Shown one piece after another: positions 189 through 57,691 of a DNA stretch of 64,000 nucleotides. Position numbers and translations under genes: made by a program. How positions within the stretch are numbered: position 1 is the first letter of the stretch; every line of letters starts with the position of its first letter. The DNA comes from Candidatus Bathyarchaeota archaeon. GTDB lineage: Archaea; Thermoproteota; Bathyarchaeia; Bathyarchaeales; DTEX01. The notes under the pieces were generated by a model. It saw only the letters and a program-made list of their open reading frames with translations. It was not told the origin of the DNA and did no database searches. The stretch lies in contig JAGTQB010000008.1 of NCBI GenBank assembly GCA_018396995.1, forward strand, positions 132-64,131, given 5' to 3'.

Positions 189-937
189 ATGTTTTGGGTG
201 TCATGTTTGTCTGGGGGTGAGTGGGAGAGGCTTATTGAGAGGTTGATTGCATCCGGGATACTTAAGTCTCCTAGGGTTATTAGGGCTATGAGACTAGTCC
301 CCAGAATTATGTTTCTTCCAGATGATCAGAAACCATACGCCGCGGTTGATACCCCGCTCCCAATAGGTCATGGGCAGACGGTTTCCGCGCCACGGGGCTA
401 ATCGCCCCCCGATTAGCCCGGCGAGACATGGTAGCTATAATGAATGAAGCCCTTGAGCTTAACGTGGGGCATAGGGTTCTTGAAGTCGGCTCAGGATCCG
501 GCTGGCACGCATCAACGATAGCTGAAATAGTTGCGCCCAGCGATGCTCCAAAGGAGAAATGGGGCCACGTGTATACTGTAGAGATCATACCGGATTTAGC
601 GGAATTCGCTAAGAGGAATATTGAAGCGGCTGGTTATGGCGATAGGATCACGGTTATATGTGGTGACGGCTCCATGGGTTATCAGGAGGGAGCCCCATAT
701 GACAGGATACTAGTAACAGCCGCAGCACCATCCATACCAGCCCCACTAAAAGAGCAGCTCAAGCCCGGAGGAATAATGGTTATACCAGTTGGGGAGGTCG
801 GCTTCTACCAGACGCTGATACGCGTCAGAAAACTGGAGGACGGCAAAATAATTGAGGAGGATCTTGGTGGAGTAGCATTCGTGCCACTCACTGGTAAGTA
901 TGGGCATAGAATTAGGCGTGGATGGCTCTCCTATTAA
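189..937 (+). CDS. pcm: protein-L-isoaspartate O-methyltransferase, interrupted by a 32-nt BHB-type insert (394..425). Predicted spliced product is 238 aa.
   Basis: ORF 189-401 ends ...[15 protein letters not shown] followed by RG-stop. ORF 428-937 starts [26 protein letters not shown] (SAM motif I) in another frame. Joining 393 to 426 gives the conserved GQTVSAPHMVAIM motif. The exact start is uncertain (ATG 189, GTG 198 or TTG 207, all in frame). Confidence 0.85.
394..425 (+). other. putative bulge-helix-bulge (BHB) intron inside the pcm coding sequence
   Basis: Central 4-bp helix 388-391 CGCC / 420-423 GGCG. 3-nt bulges 392-394 (ACG) and 424-426 (AGA) lie on opposite strands. Inner 10-bp helix 395-404 GGGCTAATCG / 410-419 CGATTAGCCC with a CCCCC loop. 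Cleavage after the second bulge nucleotide on each side removes 32 nt and restores the frame (CCA C|AC ATG = Pro-His-Met). Confidence 0.6.
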
Positions 938-2619: not shown

Positions 2620-4617
2620 ATTAAGCTCGGTAGGGTTTTAGTTACCGCTGCCTGGCCATACATAAACCACATACCACATTTAGGGAATTTATTGCCTATT
2701 CTATCAGCGGATGTCATTGCCCGCTATTATAGGCTTAAGGGTGAAGAGGTTCTTTTTGTAAGCGGCTCCGACGAACATGGAACACCAATAGAGGTTGAGG
2801 CAATAAGGCAAAACACATCGCCTAAAGAGTTAACCGACAGAAACCATGAAATTGTCTCACACCTCTTTGAGAGATGGGCGATATCCTTCGACAATTACAG
2901 TAGGACGGAAAGTGAGGTTCATAAGGAGTTTGTTAGAAGTATAATGCTCAAAATAGAGGAGAATGGCTATATATTCACAAGAGAAGATGAGCTGCCCTAC
3001 TGTGAGAGGTGCCAACGCTTCCTACCAGACAGGTTCGTTGAGGGCACCTGCCCATATTGCAGTTATGAGCGGGCGCGTGGGGATCAATGCGAACAGTGCG
3101 GGCGCCTTCTAGAGCCAACAAAGCTAATTGAGCCGAGGTGCGCAGTATGTGGGAGAAAACCGACGATAAAAACCGCTAAGCACTGGTACTTTAATATGCC
3201 CAAGTTCACAGACAAGCTAATGGCGTATATAGAGGGAAATGAGAGGCTCCCGGAGAATGCAAGAAACTTTAGCCTAAACCTACTTAAGGAGGGCTTGAAG
3301 CCTAGGCCGATAACCAGGGATAATAAGTGGGGTATACCGGCACCATTCAAGGGGGCGGAGGATAAGACAATATATGTCTGGTTTGAGGCGGTATTGGGCT
3401 ATATCTCAGCGACAATAGAATACTTTAAGAGACATGGTGACGGAGATAGATGGCGAGACTACTGGTTCGACAAGAATACAAAGACGCTTTACTTCATAGG
3501 AAAGGATAATATACCATTCCATACACTGATCCTGCCAGCCCTCCTAATGGCCACCCATGAAGACTATAATCTGCCATGGAATGTCTGCACCAATGAGTGG
3601 CTTATCTTCGCTGGACAAAAGTCCTCGAAGAGTAGGAAGATAGGTATATGGATAGATGAAGCTTTAGATATGTTTCCAGCAGACTACTGGAGGTACACGC
3701 TGATAGCAATAAGACCCGAGACAAAGGACTCGGACTTTACATGGAAAATATTTATCGAGAAGGTTAATGCAGACCTAAACGATACGCTTGGAAACTTCAT
3801 ACACAGAACCCTAAAATTCATAAACACTTACTTTAACGGCGAAGTTCCAGCCCCAATGAACCTCGATAGCACCGATGAGGCGACTCTAAGAATAATTTAT
3901 GAGAAGGTTAAAGTCGTCAGCGAATTACTTGAGAACTGCCAGCTCCAAGCCGCCCTCAAGGAGGCTATTGATCTAAGCCGCATTGGGAACAGGTATTTAA
4001 ATGAGAAGAGACCGTGGGAGACTATAAAATCGAGCCCACAGACAGCTGCAAATACGCTTTATGTCTCAGTTCAAGTGGTTAAGGCTTTATCAATAATATT
4101 AGAGCCCTTCATACCGATAACTATGCGTAAGCTCCGTGAGATGCTAAACGTCCCCGAGAGAATTTCTTGGGACGACGCATATAAGCCGCTTCCCCAAGGA
4201 CACAGAATTGGTAAGGCTGAGCCACTCTTCACAAAAATAAATGTCTCAGAGGAGGATTTACAGAGGATGCTTGAAGAAAAGAGGGAAGAGCATGAGAAGA
4301 TATCTTATGAAGAGTTTTCAAAGGTGGATATTCGCGTGGGGAAGGTGGTTGAGGCTGAGAGAGTAGCTGGCTCCCAAAACCTATTGAAACTGGTAATTGA
4401 CGTCGGCGACTCCCTTAAAACCTGCATATCCGGAATAGCAAAACATTATAAGCCAGAGGACCTAAAAGGGAAATATATTGCAGTTGTAGTAAACCTGAAG
4501 CCCAGACGGGTCTTCGGAATAGACTCTGAGGTAATGATACTAGCTGCTGAGGATGGGGATAACTTGACATTAATAGTTCCGGAATCACCAATAAGGCCTG
4601 GAAGTAAAGTAAGATAG
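2620..4617 (+). CDS. metG: methionyl-tRNA synthetase with C-terminal EMAP/Trbp111-like tRNA-binding domain. The 5' end is unresolved (no canonical start upstream of the HIGH motif).
   Basis: The track ORF starts at TTG 2692, but the same frame continues upstream as ...VLVTAAWPYINHIPHLGNLL (class I HIGH region). Zn knuckles CPYC/CEQC and CAVC are present. KSSKSRK is KMSKS-like. The C-terminus VDIRVGKVVEAERV.. is a tRNA-binding OB fold. Frame is open from 2527. Only ATT codons (2596, 2599, 2620) and CTG 2536 are available as starts. Confidence 0.85.
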   Translation: MKLGRVLVTAAWPYINHIPHLGNLLPILSADVIARYYRLKGEEVLFVSGSDEHGTPIEVEAIRQNTSPKELTDRNHEIVSHLFERWAISFDNYSRTESEVHKEFVRSIMLKIEENGYIFTREDELPYCERCQRFLPDRFVEGTCPYCSYERARGDQCEQCGRLLEPTKLIEPRCAVCGRKPTIKTAKHWYFNMPKFTDKLMAYIEGNERLPENARNFSLNLLKEGLKPRPITRDNKWGIPAPFKGAEDKTIYVWFEAVLGYISATIEYFKRHGDGDRWRDYWFDKNTKTLYFIGKDNIPFHTLILPALLMATHEDYNLPWNVCTNEWLIFAGQKSSKSRKIGIWIDEALDMFPADYWRYTLIAIRPETKDSDFTWKIFIEKVNADLNDTLGNFIHRTLKFINTYFNGEVPAPMNLDSTDEATLRIIYEKVKVVSELLENCQLQAALKEAIDLSRIGNRYLNEKRPWETIKSSPQTAANTLYVSVQVVKALSIILEPFIPITMRKLREMLNVPERISWDDAYKPLPQGHRIGKAEPLFTKINVSEEDLQRMLEEKREEHEKISYEEFSKVDIRVGKVVEAERVAGSQNLLKLVIDVGDSLKTCISGIAKHYKPEDLKGKYIAVVVNLKPRRVFGIDSEVMILAAEDGDNLTLIVPESPIRPGSKVR

Positions 4618-12417: not shown

Positions 12418-12508
12418 CTTCGGTTCAAAAAGTTTTTAAATGACCTCTTAATAGCATTTCTCAAGTAATATTTACTTATGGTGGAGTTTTGCGGGGGAGT
12501 GGGATAAA

Positions 12509-13120
12509 ACGTTTAACCTAGTAACTATTGAGGACACTATCCGCATACCGCCAAACAGGTTTAATGAACCCCTTGAGAAGGTTGCGCTAGAGCAACTTAA
12601 AATGAAGTATGTTGGGGTAATGGATGAGGAGCTAGGATACTTAATAGCTGTTACGGATGTTAAGGTCTCACCGATTGGAAAAATAATACCCGGGGATGCT
12701 GCAACCCACCATAAAGTTACATTTTCTCTACTAACTTTCCTACCTAAGGTTCAGGAGGTTGTTGAGGGGGAGGTTGTTGAGGTTGCGGACTTTGGGGCAT
12801 TTATTCGCATCGGCCCAGTTGATGCACTCCTACATATATCTCAGATAATGGATGACTTTATAGTATATGATGAGAAACAAGGGGTTTTGATGGGAAAGGA
12901 TACTAAGAGGAAGATTACCATTGGAGATAAGATGCGTGTTAGAATAACAGCTGTTTCACTTAGTAAGGGCTCCGGGCTTGGAAAAATTGGGGTGACAGCT
13001 CGGCAGCCATTTCTTGGAAAGATTGAGTGGATTGAGGAGGATCTGAAGAAGGCTAGGGGTGAATTAGAGGTTAAAGAGGCTCAGGAGGCAAAGGAGACTA
13101 AGGCTAAAAAGAGAGAGTGA
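12509..13120 (+). CDS. rpoE: DNA-directed RNA polymerase subunit E'/Rpo7. The N-terminus is encoded upstream of the first canonical start codon.
   Basis: The track ORF starts at ATG 12602, but the frame upstream reads (T)FNLVTIEDTIRIPPNRFNEPLEKVALEQLK, which is the conserved Rpo7 N-terminus. The S1 domain follows (GEVVEVADFGAFIRIGPVDALLHISQ). The codon aligned with Met1 of homologs is ACG 12509-12511, preceded by GGAGTGGGAT. Confidence 0.8.
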   Translation, partial: TFNLVTIEDTIRIPPNRFNEPLEKVALEQLKMKYVGVMDEELGYLIAVTDVKVSPIGKIIPGDAATHHKVTFSLLTFLPKVQEVVEGEVVEVADFGAFIRIGPVDALLHISQIMDDFIVYDEKQGVLMGKDTKRKITIGDKMRVRITAVSLSKGSGLGKIGVTARQPFLGKIEWIEEDLKKARGELEVKEAQEAKETKAKKRE

Positions 13121-33369: not shown

Positions 33370-34419
33370 CTAGACAATCCGTAACCCCCTCTTCTCAACC
33401 CTATAAAGGCCGTCTATCTTCCTAATATCGAACTTAACGCCAAGCATCTCTTCAGCAAGCCATATATTTGACTCAAGATGATCGGTGATCATTCTAGTCA
33501 GGTAAACAGACTCATCATTAGCTAAAGCCATATATGGGATCAGCATGTCAGCCATATGCACGTCAACAGTTGCCCTAGCATCAATCTCCTCAAGAAGCCC
33601 CTTAGCGGCCTCCTGAGCGACAGCCTCGCTACTTTTTCCAAGCTCGCCTATTGAGTCACTCCCTAGAATCGCCCCACTACTAGTCTCAGCCCAGAGAACG
33701 AGCGAGCTACCCTTCTGTAAGGGATTCGAGAAATCATTTATTATGTGGATTTTTGGGTCTAGGCCCCTAGCCCTCAATATTTTCTCAGCCTCCTTAGCCT
33801 GTCTCTCAGCCACCCTCCTGTCCGCTAGGAAGGTGCAGAGGGAGATCCCCTTAACAGACTTTACCTCACCAAACTCCTCCAACCTTATGGGCTTAAGCTC
33901 CTTAGATGGCTTTACCCTCAATACGACTTCTCCCATACCCTTAGGGTAGTAACCATACCTCTTAACCTCGATCTCCGCCTTAACCCCCATCCTCTCAAGA
34001 ACCCTTAGAAAAACATTCGCTAAATAGTTTATCGTCGGAGAATTTTTAACATCAGTCCCGCCCTTAGAGATCTTTAGTGTAACAGTCTCCTTAGCGAAGA
34101 TGCATATCGGCAGGACTGTCATTATTAACATAGGTATGCTGCCAGCCGTCCCTATTTCAGCGTATATTTCGCCACCACTTATCTTCCCGGGCTTAAACCA
34201 GAGTTCTTGAGAGCCAAGGTAAGCGCCCTTAACTTCAGCATTGCAAATTTTAGCGGCTGTAATGACTGATTCTAAGTGCTGAGGTCTTAAACCCGGTTCG
34301 CTCCGCTTCTTCCTAATATTATATATGTGCAGCGGCTCTCCTAGAATGCTGGCAAAAGCGAGGGATAGACGTAAGATTGTTCCGCTGCCACTCTTTTGTC
34401 CACCATCAACCTCAAGCAT
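33370..34419 (-). CDS. rtcA: RNA 3'-terminal phosphate cyclase
   Basis: DGGQKSGSGTILRLSLAFASILGEPLHIYNIRKKRSEPGLRPQHL matches the RtcA N-terminal signature, including the His of the adenylylation region. 349 aa. Confidence 0.85.
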   Translation of the reverse strand: MLEVDGGQKSGSGTILRLSLAFASILGEPLHIYNIRKKRSEPGLRPQHLESVITAAKICNAEVKGAYLGSQELWFKPGKISGGEIYAEIGTAGSIPMLIMTVLPICIFAKETVTLKISKGGTDVKNSPTINYLANVFLRVLERMGVKAEIEVKRYGYYPKGMGEVVLRVKPSKELKPIRLEEFGEVKSVKGISLCTFLADRRVAERQAKEAEKILRARGLDPKIHIINDFSNPLQKGSSLVLWAETSSGAILGSDSIGELGKSSEAVAQEAAKGLLEEIDARATVDVHMADMLIPYMALANDESVYLTRMITDHLESNIWLAEEMLGVKFDIRKIDGLYRVEKRGLRIV

Positions 34420-50632: not shown

Positions 50633-50742
50633 GCCGCCGTAGCTCAGTTAGGTAGAGCAGCGGGCTCCTGAGATAATATCAACTCAGGGGGCTGATGCTG
50701 TTAACCCGTTGGTCGACGGTTCGAGTCCGTCCGGCGGCGCCA
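50633..50742 (+). tRNA. tRNA-Asn (GTT) with 33-nt non-canonical BHB intron at position 30/31, CCA encoded
   Basis: Acceptor GCCGCCG/CGGCGGC and T arm GACGG-TTCGAGT-CCGTC. After removing 50664-50696 the anticodon arm is GCGGG-CTGTTAA-CCCGT. Confidence 0.85.
50664..50696 (+). other. BHB intron of tRNA-Asn
   Basis: Central helix 50658-50661 CAGC / 50691-50694 GCTG. Bulges 50662-50664 (GGG) and 50695-50697 (ATG). Inner helix 50665-50672 / 50683-50690. Cutting after the second bulge nucleotide gives a 33-nt intron, exactly the excess length of the gene. Confidence 0.8.
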
Positions 50743-56196: not shown

Positions 56197-56697
56197 TTGG
56201 AGAAATTAAAGCCTAAATTTGGCGTCGGTGTAGTGTTAGGGAGCAATGTTCAATTAGGCACCGGAGTGGTCATATGGAACTATGTTGTGATAGGCGATAA
56301 TACTATAGTGGGCGATGAAACTAAAATTGGAAGTTTCTGCGACATAGGAAGGAACGTCGTCATAGGCAAAAAATGTAATATTCAAGCACATGTAACAATC
56401 GCGAATGGTTGTAGAATTGGTGATAACGTATTCATAGGTCCAAACGTTTCAATTCTAAATGATAAGTATCCTGTAAGCGAGCGAATAAAGCCGCCAGTTA
56501 TAGGCAATGATGTTGTAATTGGTGGGGGAGCAATAATATTACCAAACATAATCATAGGTAATGGAGCAGTAATAGCAGCTGGAAGCGTGGTCACAAGAGA
56601 TGTAAAACCACAGACCGTAGTTAAAGGAATTCCGGCAAGGAAATTTATGAGTAAAAGAGAATACGAAATTAAAAAATCATTATTTAATGGTGATTAA
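56197..56697 (+). CDS. left-handed beta-helix (hexapeptide repeat) acetyltransferase, WbpD/NeuD-like
   Basis: Repeated [LIV]G.. hexapeptides throughout (VIGDNTIVGDETKIGSF.., IGDNVFIGPNV..). 166 aa. Confidence 0.75.
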   Translation: MEKLKPKFGVGVVLGSNVQLGTGVVIWNYVVIGDNTIVGDETKIGSFCDIGRNVVIGKKCNIQAHVTIANGCRIGDNVFIGPNVSILNDKYPVSERIKPPVIGNDVVIGGGAIILPNIIIGNGAVIAAGSVVTRDVKPQTVVKGIPARKFMSKREYEIKKSLFNGD

Positions 56698-57691
56698 CAT
56701 CAACAATATTCCTAACAAGGTTTTCAATTAGATCGAGTGGGTTCTCAAGCTCGTCAAGAAGATTATTGATGTCAAAGCGCTTCCCAATATACTTTTTAGC
56801 GTACTCCATGATTTCTTCAGGCTTAATGGTAAATATCGGGAAGCCTCTTTCCGCTAAGTAATCATTCACATGTATCTTACCAAAGATGTTGATTACGATG
56901 CTAGGCGTACCAGACAAAGCAGCTTCCCTAGAGATTGTTCCACCAGCACTTACGACAAGATCTGCTTGTGAAGCTAAGCTTGCCGAATCCACAAAGCCTC
57001 TCGGCACAATTAAGCCTTTTCTACGCTTTCTTTCATATCTACTCAAATATAATACGCAACCAAGTGAGGACAGCTTCCTCGCAATTTCCTCCATTATATC
57101 ACTGCTACCTAAAGCGTACGTTGCTTTAACTTCGCTCTGTCTCACTACTATTAATGGTCTCTTTAAATCAAATCTCATGAGGGGCTTAAAATTTTTCATC
57201 CAAGCAACCTCGTCAACGCCTTCAAATTGGATTATGTTCTTGGCGCCGTATCCCGAAATTATCTCTTTTGGGATAGCTTTTGATGCTATTACCGTAGTTG
57301 CCAATGGAATTGAGAGTCTATTTACTGCGTCAGCATGTGGAGTATCAAATGTATATATTATCGGTATTCTGAGACCAAAGGCCACACGACACAGATCGGC
57401 TGAGGCGTGGCAAATAGCGCACCTCGGAGGATCTTTATGAAACATTTTAGAAAGCGTTATCTGTCTCTTTAAACTTTCATAGAGTCTTGTATATAATGTT
57501 CTTGTATCATATCTTCCAACGACCTTAAAATCTATGCCTAGATACTCTGCTAAGGGTATTGTATCTGGATGCTTTCTTACTGTAAATATTACCTTATACC
57601 CTCTACCCTCTAAACGCTTCTTTACCTCAGCTCCATATCGGACCTGCTTTCCTGTGCATGCATCGTACCATATCTTCATGAACCCCACCAA
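56684..57691 (-). CDS. DUF354 family protein (GT-B / UDP-GlcNAc 2-epimerase-like fold)
   Basis: N-terminus MKIWYDACTGKQVRY...GYKVIFTVRKH, typical of archaeal DUF354. About 330 aa. Confidence 0.55.
   Translation of the reverse strand: MVGFMKIWYDACTGKQVRYGAEVKKRLEGRGYKVIFTVRKHPDTIPLAEYLGIDFKVVGRYDTRTLYTRLYESLKRQITLSKMFHKDPPRCAICHASADLCRVAFGLRIPIIYTFDTPHADAVNRLSIPLATTVIASKAIPKEIISGYGAKNIIQFEGVDEVAWMKNFKPLMRFDLKRPLIVVRQSEVKATYALGSSDIMEEIARKLSSLGCVLYLSRYERKRRKGLIVPRGFVDSASLASQADLVVSAGGTISREAALSGTPSIVINIFGKIHVNDYLAERGFPIFTIKPEEIMEYAKKYIGKRFDINNLLDELENPLDLIENLVRNIVDVNHH

Follow-up and report, generated by a model that had tools for sequence, protein, structure and literature searches.

Archaeal mRNAs with introns of the bulge-helix-bulge (BHB) type have been described in two cases. 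The cbf5 pre-mRNA of Crenarchaeota (Aeropyrum, Sulfolobus) carries a BHB intron (Watanabe 2002; Yoshinari 2006; Yokobori 2009, PMC2738675), the splicing of which was demonstrated by reverse transcription PCR, in-vitro cleavage, and immunodetection, and relaxed motifs in this non-tRNA context are cleaved by the crenarchaeal heterotetrameric tRNA-splicing endonuclease EndA (PMC2738675). A further BHB intron lies in the 5' untranslated region (5'UTR) of HVO_1309 in Haloferax volcanii, where RNA sequencing identified the spliced form as the major product (Schwarz 2020, PMC7714728; PMC10485636). In reviews and original papers published through 2025, the archaeal mRNAs given as substrates are cbf5 and the HVO_1309 5'UTR, and a 2023 review counted just these two while expecting more (PMC10485636). 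Here, we analyzed a stretch of 64,000 nucleotides (nt) from a Candidatus Bathyarchaeota archaeon (GenBank assembly GCA_018396995.1, contig JAGTQB010000008.1, positions 132 to 64,131; hereafter, the window), in which the pcm gene for protein-L-isoaspartate O-methyltransferase is interrupted at positions 394-425 of the window. Comparative evidence makes it very probable that this 32-nt interruption is a genuine archaeal BHB intron within the pcm coding region of a Bathyarchaeia genome. An initial annotation of the window had proposed this reading and had named cbf5 as essentially the only protein-coding precedent; this account of earlier work was nearly complete, and the literature supplies the Haloferax 5'UTR as one more mRNA case.

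The pcm interruption resembles the cbf5 intron in several respects: it is a short BHB-type sequence in a coding region, the full-length protein would require its splicing, the motif is relaxed (as it often is in cbf5), and its distribution is patchy, which was also read as gain and loss for cbf5 (PMC2738675). The cbf5 intron is tied to a hetero-oligomeric, broad-specificity EndA, and an enzyme of this kind would be expected to act on pcm. The two cases differ in gene and lineage, as cbf5 encodes a pseudouridine synthase in Sulfolobales and Desulfurococcales, whereas pcm encodes a member of PF01135 in Bathyarchaeia. The introns are not homologous, and splicing of cbf5 has been shown experimentally, whereas the case for pcm is purely comparative. 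HVO_1309 is likewise an mRNA with a BHB intron and a substrate of the archaeal splicing endonuclease; however, its intron lies in the 5'UTR and leaves the frame uninterrupted, and its host is a euryarchaeon with a homodimeric (α2) EndA. The architecture and the cleavage rule are also those of the non-canonical archaeal tRNA introns with relaxed motifs (hBH or HBh'; Marck & Grosjean 2003; Hirata 2019, PMC6379350), an example of which is the tRNA-Asn intron of the same window. In contrast to these, the substrate in pcm would be an mRNA, the exon strands of the motif are also constrained by coding, and no tRNA body would aid recognition. The length of the pcm intron falls within the range reported for tRNA introns (11-175 nt). 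A further likeness, which is an analogy only, is with the regulated stress switch of eukaryotes in which the nuclease IRE1 acts on twin stem-loops, the XBP1 intron being 26 nt long. There, too, according to PMC8718801 on XBP1 and HAC1, a very short mRNA intron is excised at structured sites by a protein endonuclease and the exons are rejoined by RtcB, with a change of frame, but the nuclease, the paired stem-loops, and the regulated switch set this system apart from the proposal for pcm.

In the full-text literature, we found no paper that ties isoaspartate methyltransferase to BHB motifs and none on mRNA introns in Bathyarchaeia; on the sequence evidence, pcm would be both a new host gene and a new lineage for archaeal mRNA BHB introns. 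If so, pcm would hold the second, independent coding-region BHB intron, after cbf5, in a subset of Crenarchaeota, had stood alone for more than 20 years, and it would do so in a class that differs from the cbf5 hosts and is ecologically very abundant.

The split pcm gene and the fold of its insert

Re-reading of the window bore out the coordinates given in the initial annotation for the helices, bulges, loop, and open reading frames (ORFs). All features of pcm lie on the forward strand. In the ORF list, the gene appears as an upstream ORF of 70 amino acids (aa; 189-401), which ends in SAPRG and a stop, and a downstream ORF of 169 aa in a different frame (428-937), which begins with MVAIMNEAL. 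From the ORF list and the spliced translation, exon 1 was assigned to 189-393, with an ATG start at 189 (alternative in-frame starts are GTG at 198 and TTG at 207) and a 3' end of GGG CAG ACG GTT TCC GCG CCA C, which encodes GQTVSAP and supplies the first base of a His codon. Exon 2 was assigned to 426-937; its first two bases, AC, complete the His codon CAC, ATG GTA GCT (the start of MVAIMNEAL) follows, and the stop codon lies at 935-937. Between the exons lies the 32-nt insert GGGGCTAATCGCCCCCCGATTAGCCCGGCGAG (394-425). We enumerated the deletions with a 5' break at 380-401 and a 3' end at or before 431, and the removal of 394-425 was the only one that restored the frame, yielding SAPHMVAIM in a long open frame. 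This deletion restored GQTVSAPHMVAIM and a full-length PCMT protein in an uninterrupted ORF of 238 codons, and the in-frame TAA at 399-401 is located inside the excised hairpin, as had been claimed.

The spliced protein matched PF01135 (PCMT) in one stretch over profile positions 4-208 of 210 (214 bits), beginning at residue 13. It also aligned without gaps to solved protein-L-isoaspartate O-methyltransferases, including that of Pyrococcus furiosus (PIMT, PDB 1JG1), in which GQTVSAPHMVAIM is identical; this conservation indicates that the break falls within the most conserved, catalytic motif of the enzyme. Both exons are under purifying selection, with pairwise ratios of nonsynonymous to synonymous substitution (dN/dS) against relatives of 0.08-0.19 for exon 1 and 0.05-0.09 for exon 2. 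Further disabling lesions in the pcm genes of relatives would have spoken for a plain pseudogene; none were found in the complete spliced ORFs, which were intact in 129 of 129 cases (the other 8 were cut by locus ends).

The insert and its borders form the bulge-helix-bulge fold that had been described. In the central helix (H), the exonic strand CGCC (388-391), which belongs to the Ala-Pro codons, pairs with the intronic strand GGCG (420-423) over 4 base pairs (bp). Two 3-nt bulges, ACG (392-394) and AGA (424-426), lie on opposite strands 4 bp apart, each 3' of its helix strand, and cuts are predicted at 393/394 and 425/426. The inner helix (h') and its loop occupy 395-419; GGGCTAATCG (395-404) and CGATTAGCCC (410-419) are exact reverse complements and form a perfect 10-bp helix closed by the loop CCCCC (405-409). 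RNAfold reproduced the inner helix, the central helix, and the unpaired 3-nt 5' bulge in its minimum free energy (MFE) structure. On the exon side, the 3' bulge is closed only by G387:C427, the sole conserved pair of the outer helix (h), in agreement with the weakness of this helix noted in the initial annotation. The canonical hBHBh' motif, as defined in PMC7714728, has at least two Watson-Crick pairs in each of h and h'; in pcm, the 10 bp of h' in the window make it a strong helix, and h consists of a single G:C pair. Because the outer helix has only one constant pair, the motif is relaxed, of the HBh' type, by the definitions published in PMC6379350 and PMC7714728.

Conservation, covariation, and evolution among relatives

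A protein-based search of one genome per species retrieved 80 loci, the best matches among which (up to 83% identity) were all from Bathyarchaeia metagenome-assembled genomes (MAGs), which places the window in that class. Of these loci, 36 were labelled Bathyarchaeia and 44 came from other taxa, including Methanosarcina, Sulfolobales, Desulfurococcaceae, Acidilobaceae, Ignicoccus, Thorarchaeota, Nitrososphaerota, and bacteria. The tblastn match was broken or lengthened at residue 69 in 18 of the 36 Bathyarchaeia loci and in 0 of the 44 others. All 18 protein-retrieved inserts sit exactly between GC[G/A]CCAC and ACATGGT, and the intron-less orthologs read gcNccN-CAY-atggt at the same place and encode SAPHMV without interruption. 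A second, pattern-based sample was obtained by searching species-representative genomes with a DNA pattern for the intron-bearing junction. At least 119 genomes matched; those listed were all labelled Bathyarchaeota, Bathyarchaeia, or Bathyarchaeales apart from two labelled "archaeon" only, and their habitats included hot springs, peat, soils, and marine sediments. An assembly artefact in the window was checked against the independent Logan assembly SRR32459161, in which a contig (L219) from a close relative, with an exon-2 ORF 95% identical to that of the window, carries a 33-nt version of the insert. The two versions differ by one bulge base, a 1-nt indel and one substitution in the loop, and two transitions that form G·U pairs; all of these differences are structure-neutral.

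For the insert statistics, we used the 119 distinct junction sequences among the matches listed. The inserts were 20-46 nt long, most often 31-32 nt, and division by three left a remainder of 1 in 56 sequences, of 2 in 40, and of 0 in 23; this lack of preference for multiples of three indicates no pressure to preserve the reading frame. Each of the 23 inserts with a length divisible by three carries a stop in frame, and the remaining 96 shift the frame, so that in 119 of 119 junctions the unspliced message never encodes full-length Pcm. Cutting after the second base of each bulge gave GC[G/A]-CCA-CAC-ATG-GT (Ala-Pro-His-Met), the sequence of the intron-less orthologs, in every one of the 119. 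The geometry of two 3-nt bulges and a 4-bp helix was likewise kept throughout, with AC[A/T/G] as the 5' bulge and [A/T]NA as the 3' bulge among relatives, and the loop sequences were unrelated between groups (GGGCTAATCG..., CGGTTGATC..., TAGCC..., CAACACAGC..., and a minimal CGGC-loop-GCCG).

The shortest inserts were found mostly in soil-derived Bathyarchaeia: 20 nt in L076 and L194, 21 nt in L165, 22 nt in L104, L133, and L143, and 23 nt in L088, with inner helices of 4-6 bp. L076, L104, and L143 are soil MAGs with '40cm'-type labels, which resemble the name of the order (40CM-2-53-6) of the Bathyarchaeia in PMC12918454. These small inserts may rank with the shortest introns yet proposed to interrupt a coding gene, and their size would suit assays in vitro. 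Two further sequences depart from the common form. In L136, T faces T at the first position of the inner helix, a mismatch that in effect widens the 5' bulge to 4 nt, and the 46-nt intron of L185 has only 3 bp beside the bulge, followed by a larger internal structure; the two may mark the tolerance limits of the endonuclease.

Covariation was measured on fixed-length constructs anchored on the exon motif and GGYG, with no alignment fitted to the structure, and 116 sequences were available for h'. Standard pairs occupied 96.6% of cells, compared with 84.7% when partners were shuffled (reached in 0 of 500 shuffles), and only 18-40% of cells were paired when the partner was slid by 1-3 columns. 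Double-change cells numbered 184 against 53.5 expected, and the covariation score was 0.422 against 0.180 in shuffles (0 of 500 in both comparisons). Changes on both sides occurred in 7 of 11 pairs. All six anchored inner-helix pairs showed double compensatory changes, each with several Watson-Crick types (for pair 1, U-A 79, C-G 21, and G-C 13), and the first six h' pairs were paired in 82-100% of the sequences. The central helix, in which 99.8% of cells were paired, is mostly frozen because its 5' strand consists of the Ala-Pro codons. Its second pair nevertheless varied among the 119 junctions (G-C 112, A-U 4, G-U 2, A·C 1), with the exon base associated with the intron base (Fisher p = 9e-6): the Ala wobble base changed from G to A in five sequences, in four of which the intron partner is U (GCG to GCA with GGCG to GGTG), and three or more distinct intron groups show such changes. 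The outer pair G387:C427 was G:C in 119 of 119, but coding fixes both bases and the search pattern also fixed C427; the next outer-helix positions were paired in only 35% and 8% of the 119 sequences. These results indicated that the BHB structure is maintained by compensatory evolution and that the outer helix is not maintained.

A neighbor-joining tree was built from 285 Pcm sequences, 112 intron-bearing and 173 intron-less. Parsimony on this tree, which as a single-protein tree is weak evidence, gave about 22 state changes, and presence was patchy among close relatives, with intron-less proteins up to 88% identical to intron-bearing ones. The pattern is most simply explained if the intron entered pcm once, early in Bathyarchaeia, and was later lost precisely on repeated occasions; a single ancient gain is favored because the insertion site is identical and the GGYG strand is shared. 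Intron-bearing species (at least 119, with introns of 20-46 nt) and about as many close relatives without the intron together provide a large natural data set suited to the substrate rules of relaxed BHB motifs in a non-tRNA context, to intron gain and loss, and to splicing alongside coupled transcription and translation.

Predicted splicing and its alternatives

In the predicted pathway, exonic CGCC and intronic GGCG would pair in the pre-mRNA, and the 10-bp intron hairpin would stack on this helix, which would present the two 3-nt bulges on opposite strands at a distance of 4 bp. EndA would cut after the second base of each bulge, and RtcB would join the exons, which would create the CAC codon for His and one continuous mRNA of 238 codons with GQTVSAPHMVAIM, whereas ribosomes on the unspliced mRNA would terminate at the TAA. 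The intron would be released, probably as a circle. The fold, its conservation and covariation, the repair of the frame, and selection on both exons are directly shown by the sequences; EndA cleavage, RtcB ligation, and a broad-specificity host enzyme we infer. For the proposal of a relaxed BHB pre-mRNA intron cut at 393/394 and 425/426, the comparative data agree on every point, namely position, coding, splice rule, covariation, orthologs, and selection. EndA and RtcB were reported from all near-complete archaeal genomes examined in a set that includes Bathyarchaeia (PMC12918454, 2026), and in environmental RNA from uncultivated lineages, Bathyarchaeia among them, circular rRNAs have junctions at BHB motifs (PMC12918454).

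Several observations weigh against this interpretation. The RNAfold MFE structure has a 5-nt 3' bulge closed by CCG385-387:UGG429-431, and since the outer helix is nearly absent, the 3' bulge is poorly closed. The fold z-score of the single sequence was only -1.97, with 5 of 200 shuffles folding equally well, and loose BHB geometry (inner helix of at least 5 bp) occurred about 740-890 times per strand in the window and just as often in shuffles. The window sequence by itself is thus only modestly special, and what sets the motif apart from chance is its 10-bp inner helix combined with exact repair of the frame, its recurrence in more than 100 genomes, and its covariation. The invariance of CCAC/ACATGG in the set of 119 was partly imposed by the search pattern; the only unbiased check is given by the 18 protein-retrieved loci, all of which comply. 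About half of the Bathyarchaeia lack the intron, which indicates that it is dispensable. The searches of the protein collection and for metagenome junctions yielded no evidence of spliced RNA. Among full-length database proteins, none was more than 88% identical to any of the 137 spliced translations; in a collection of 5.8 billion proteins, the best full-length matches to the spliced Pcm of the window were 71-74% identical, and when the query was the spliced Pcm from a peat MAG (SPRUCE), the best match was 84% identical. The exon-2 protein of the window had no exact record in the assemblies collection. A metagenome scan for the exact spliced junction returned 20 contigs (L199-L218), several of which are 33-250 kb long and so genomic; their interpretation as cDNAs was rejected, as their nucleotide identity to intron-bearing loci over the length of the gene was at most about 80%, which identifies them as intron-less orthologs. 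Neither EndA nor RtcB was found in the window (64 kb) or among 1.4 Mb of retrieved loci, the EndA probe being the M. jannaschii protein. A gene for RtcA (RNA 3'-terminal phosphate cyclase), which generates the 2',3'-cyclic phosphate termini used by RtcB in ligation, is present in the window at 33370-34419 on the minus strand.

The 20 contigs carry an intron-less pcm with the exact spliced junction GCGCCACACATGGT (GCGCCACACATGG); the codons for Pro and His are different in the eight intron-less genome loci examined. The genes on the contigs may have lost the intron precisely by way of spliced RNA, or they may preserve the state before insertion.

As the best surviving alternative, pcm might be a split gene, in which the insert is an intercistronic spacer, polypeptides of about 70 aa and 169 aa (from ATG 428) assemble noncovalently, and GGCGA acts as a weak Shine-Dalgarno sequence. 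This is improbable. A split gene would also predict the two intact ORFs under purifying selection, the ATG at 428 lies directly 3' of the insert, and GGYGA loosely resembles GGUGA, the archaeal Shine-Dalgarno core; yet this Met corresponds to the M conserved within SAPHMV where orthologs lack the intron and is not a dedicated start. The variation in the GGYG strand follows pairing logic rather than the Shine-Dalgarno rule, as GGCG (113 of 119) outnumbers GGTG, the better Shine-Dalgarno match, and GGTG co-occurs with exonic GCA. Moreover, in 41 of the 119 junctions the upstream frame stays open across the insert and enters exon 2 in the wrong frame, producing variable tails, and the break would separate two polypeptides inside the most conserved catalytic motif. 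The two exact 3-nt bulges, the split His codon (C...AC), and the covariation would be left unexplained by a spacer.

Even less probable is translational recoding, in which ribosomes would bypass the 32 nt or shift frame, with no splicing. In phage T4 gene 60, ribosomes hop from a take-off context with a stop codon and a hairpin, and in pcm a stop and a stable hairpin similarly lie just downstream of the break. However, the take-off and landing codons are unmatched (in the window, CCA/CGG and GAC/ACA), and in relatives with CAT...CAT, landing on CAT would give the wrong frame for ATG-GTN. The insert lengths fall into all three classes modulo three, which leaves no single frameshift that works, and the conserved features (bulge size and 4-bp spacer) are specific to BHB motifs.

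Least credible of all, and in effect ruled out by comparison with relatives, is a pseudogene, a sequencing or assembly artefact, or inactivation of pcm by a mobile element: gene callers do give two fragments in different frames, and the only close match in the 5.8-billion-protein collection (95%), the entry of a close relative, is a 169-aa exon-2 fragment (P0008), but the same-site insert recurs in at least 119 species-level genomes and an independent Logan assembly, dN/dS is 0.05-0.19 with 129 of 129 complete spliced ORFs intact, no second copy (at 3 or fewer mismatches in the 64-kb window) and no flanking direct repeats of the kind left by a transposon or a miniature inverted-repeat transposable element were found, and Rfam detected no group I or group II intron in the window (its gathering-threshold matches were four tRNAs only), the insert being 32 nt long against ribozyme cores of hundreds of nucleotides.

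If the pcm insert is a BHB intron, it might further act as a post-transcriptional gate that ties Pcm synthesis to the RNA-repair activity of EndA/RtcB (and RtcA) or to temperature-dependent BHB folding, which would make it an archaeal counterpart of the IRE1/RtcB-dependent XBP1/HAC1 splicing in eukaryotic proteostasis. We regard this extension, which is drawn by analogy, as rather unlikely; if it were true, the retention of the intron at the catalytic SAPH over what appears to be the whole class-level history would reflect selection and not inertia. The splicing prediction itself can be checked in existing total-RNA data from Bathyarchaeia-rich soils and peat. Because gene callers split pcm into 70 and 169 aa, automated annotation of these genomes is expected to label the gene as fragmented or to miss it, and metabolic and repair inventories of Bathyarchaeia should correct for the split.

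A tRNA-Asn intron and other loci of the window

The genes flanking pcm in the window are housekeeping genes: tRNA-Gly, rpiA, metG, ftsZ, purA, rpoE, ribosomal protein S24e, RFC, and RtcA. The forward strand also carries a tRNA-Asn(GUU) gene at 50633-50739 (Rfam tRNA, 58.2 bits over 107 nt) with a 33-nt intron at 50664-50696. Its central helix is formed by CAGC (50658-61) and GCTG (50691-94), its bulges are GGG (50662-64) and ATG (50695-97), its inner helix has 8 bp (50665-72/50683-90), and its outer helix has only 2 bp. The cleavage rule used for pcm was said to predict this intron as well, and removal of 50664-50696 did give a canonical tRNA-Asn(GUU). By the BHB rule the intron is at position 30/31, and cuts up to 33/34 give an identical product. 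ARAGORN in intron mode instead read the unspliced sequence as tRNA-Arg(CCU) with an intron in the anticodon loop; this reading was rejected, as its splice sites lie outside BHB bulges, CTCC and CTGT being unable to pair. We prefer tRNA-Asn, the only assignment that places both splice sites in 3-nt bulges, and automated annotation may misname this tRNA. Non-canonical introns are cut only by (αβ)2 and ε2 endonucleases according to PMC5829648, and together with the non-canonical tRNA-Asn intron this would imply that the host has a broad-specificity endonuclease.

We scanned the window, and then 1.19 Mb of Bathyarchaeia loci, for further split genes by combining BHB geometry with the joining of ORFs. 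In the window, pcm was the only convincing case; the 16 strongest other candidates lay inside continuous ORFs or on the opposite strand. In the Bathyarchaeia loci, pcm was recovered 87 times. Other matches that recurred or had long ORFs were inspected, and these all proved false: an internal hairpin of GlmS, a PCNA gene with a separate gene after it, and a pair of neighboring genes in L158 and L184. At 56702-56762 on the minus strand, a long imperfect AU/GU-rich hairpin appeared BHB-like by the loose rule (inner helix 11 bp, outer helix 8 bp). It is located inside a continuous DUF354 ORF (56684-57691), at the 3' end, and its MFE structure has symmetric 1x1 loops and no staggered bulges; it is probably a chance or 3'-end structure.

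Introns were also considered behind the apparent N-terminal truncation of rpoE and metG, and were rejected in both, as neither structure nor, among relatives, insert polymorphism was found. For the rpoE/Rpb7-like ORF (12602-13120), the upstream frame (12455-12602) encodes a typical Rpb7 N-terminus (FNLVTIEDTIRIPP) and contains an out-of-frame ATG at 12479; no structure beyond chance was found in 12455-12602 (z = 0.01), hence no evidence of an intron, and the gene looks as if it has a non-canonical start. For metG, the methionyl-tRNA synthetase (MetRS) frame is open upstream (2527-2692) of the ORF at 2692-4617 and encodes a conserved N-terminus (KLGRVLVTAAWPYINHIPHLGN) with a HIGH-type motif, and this upstream frame contains no in-frame ATG, GTG, or TTG. 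In five close relatives, metG is preceded by a TATA-like box and GG(A/G)GGTG and continues with CTC-GGN-ARG-GTT-YTA-GTT, with no canonical start in four of them. From these sequences, metG looks like a case of a conserved non-canonical initiation codon and not of an intron.

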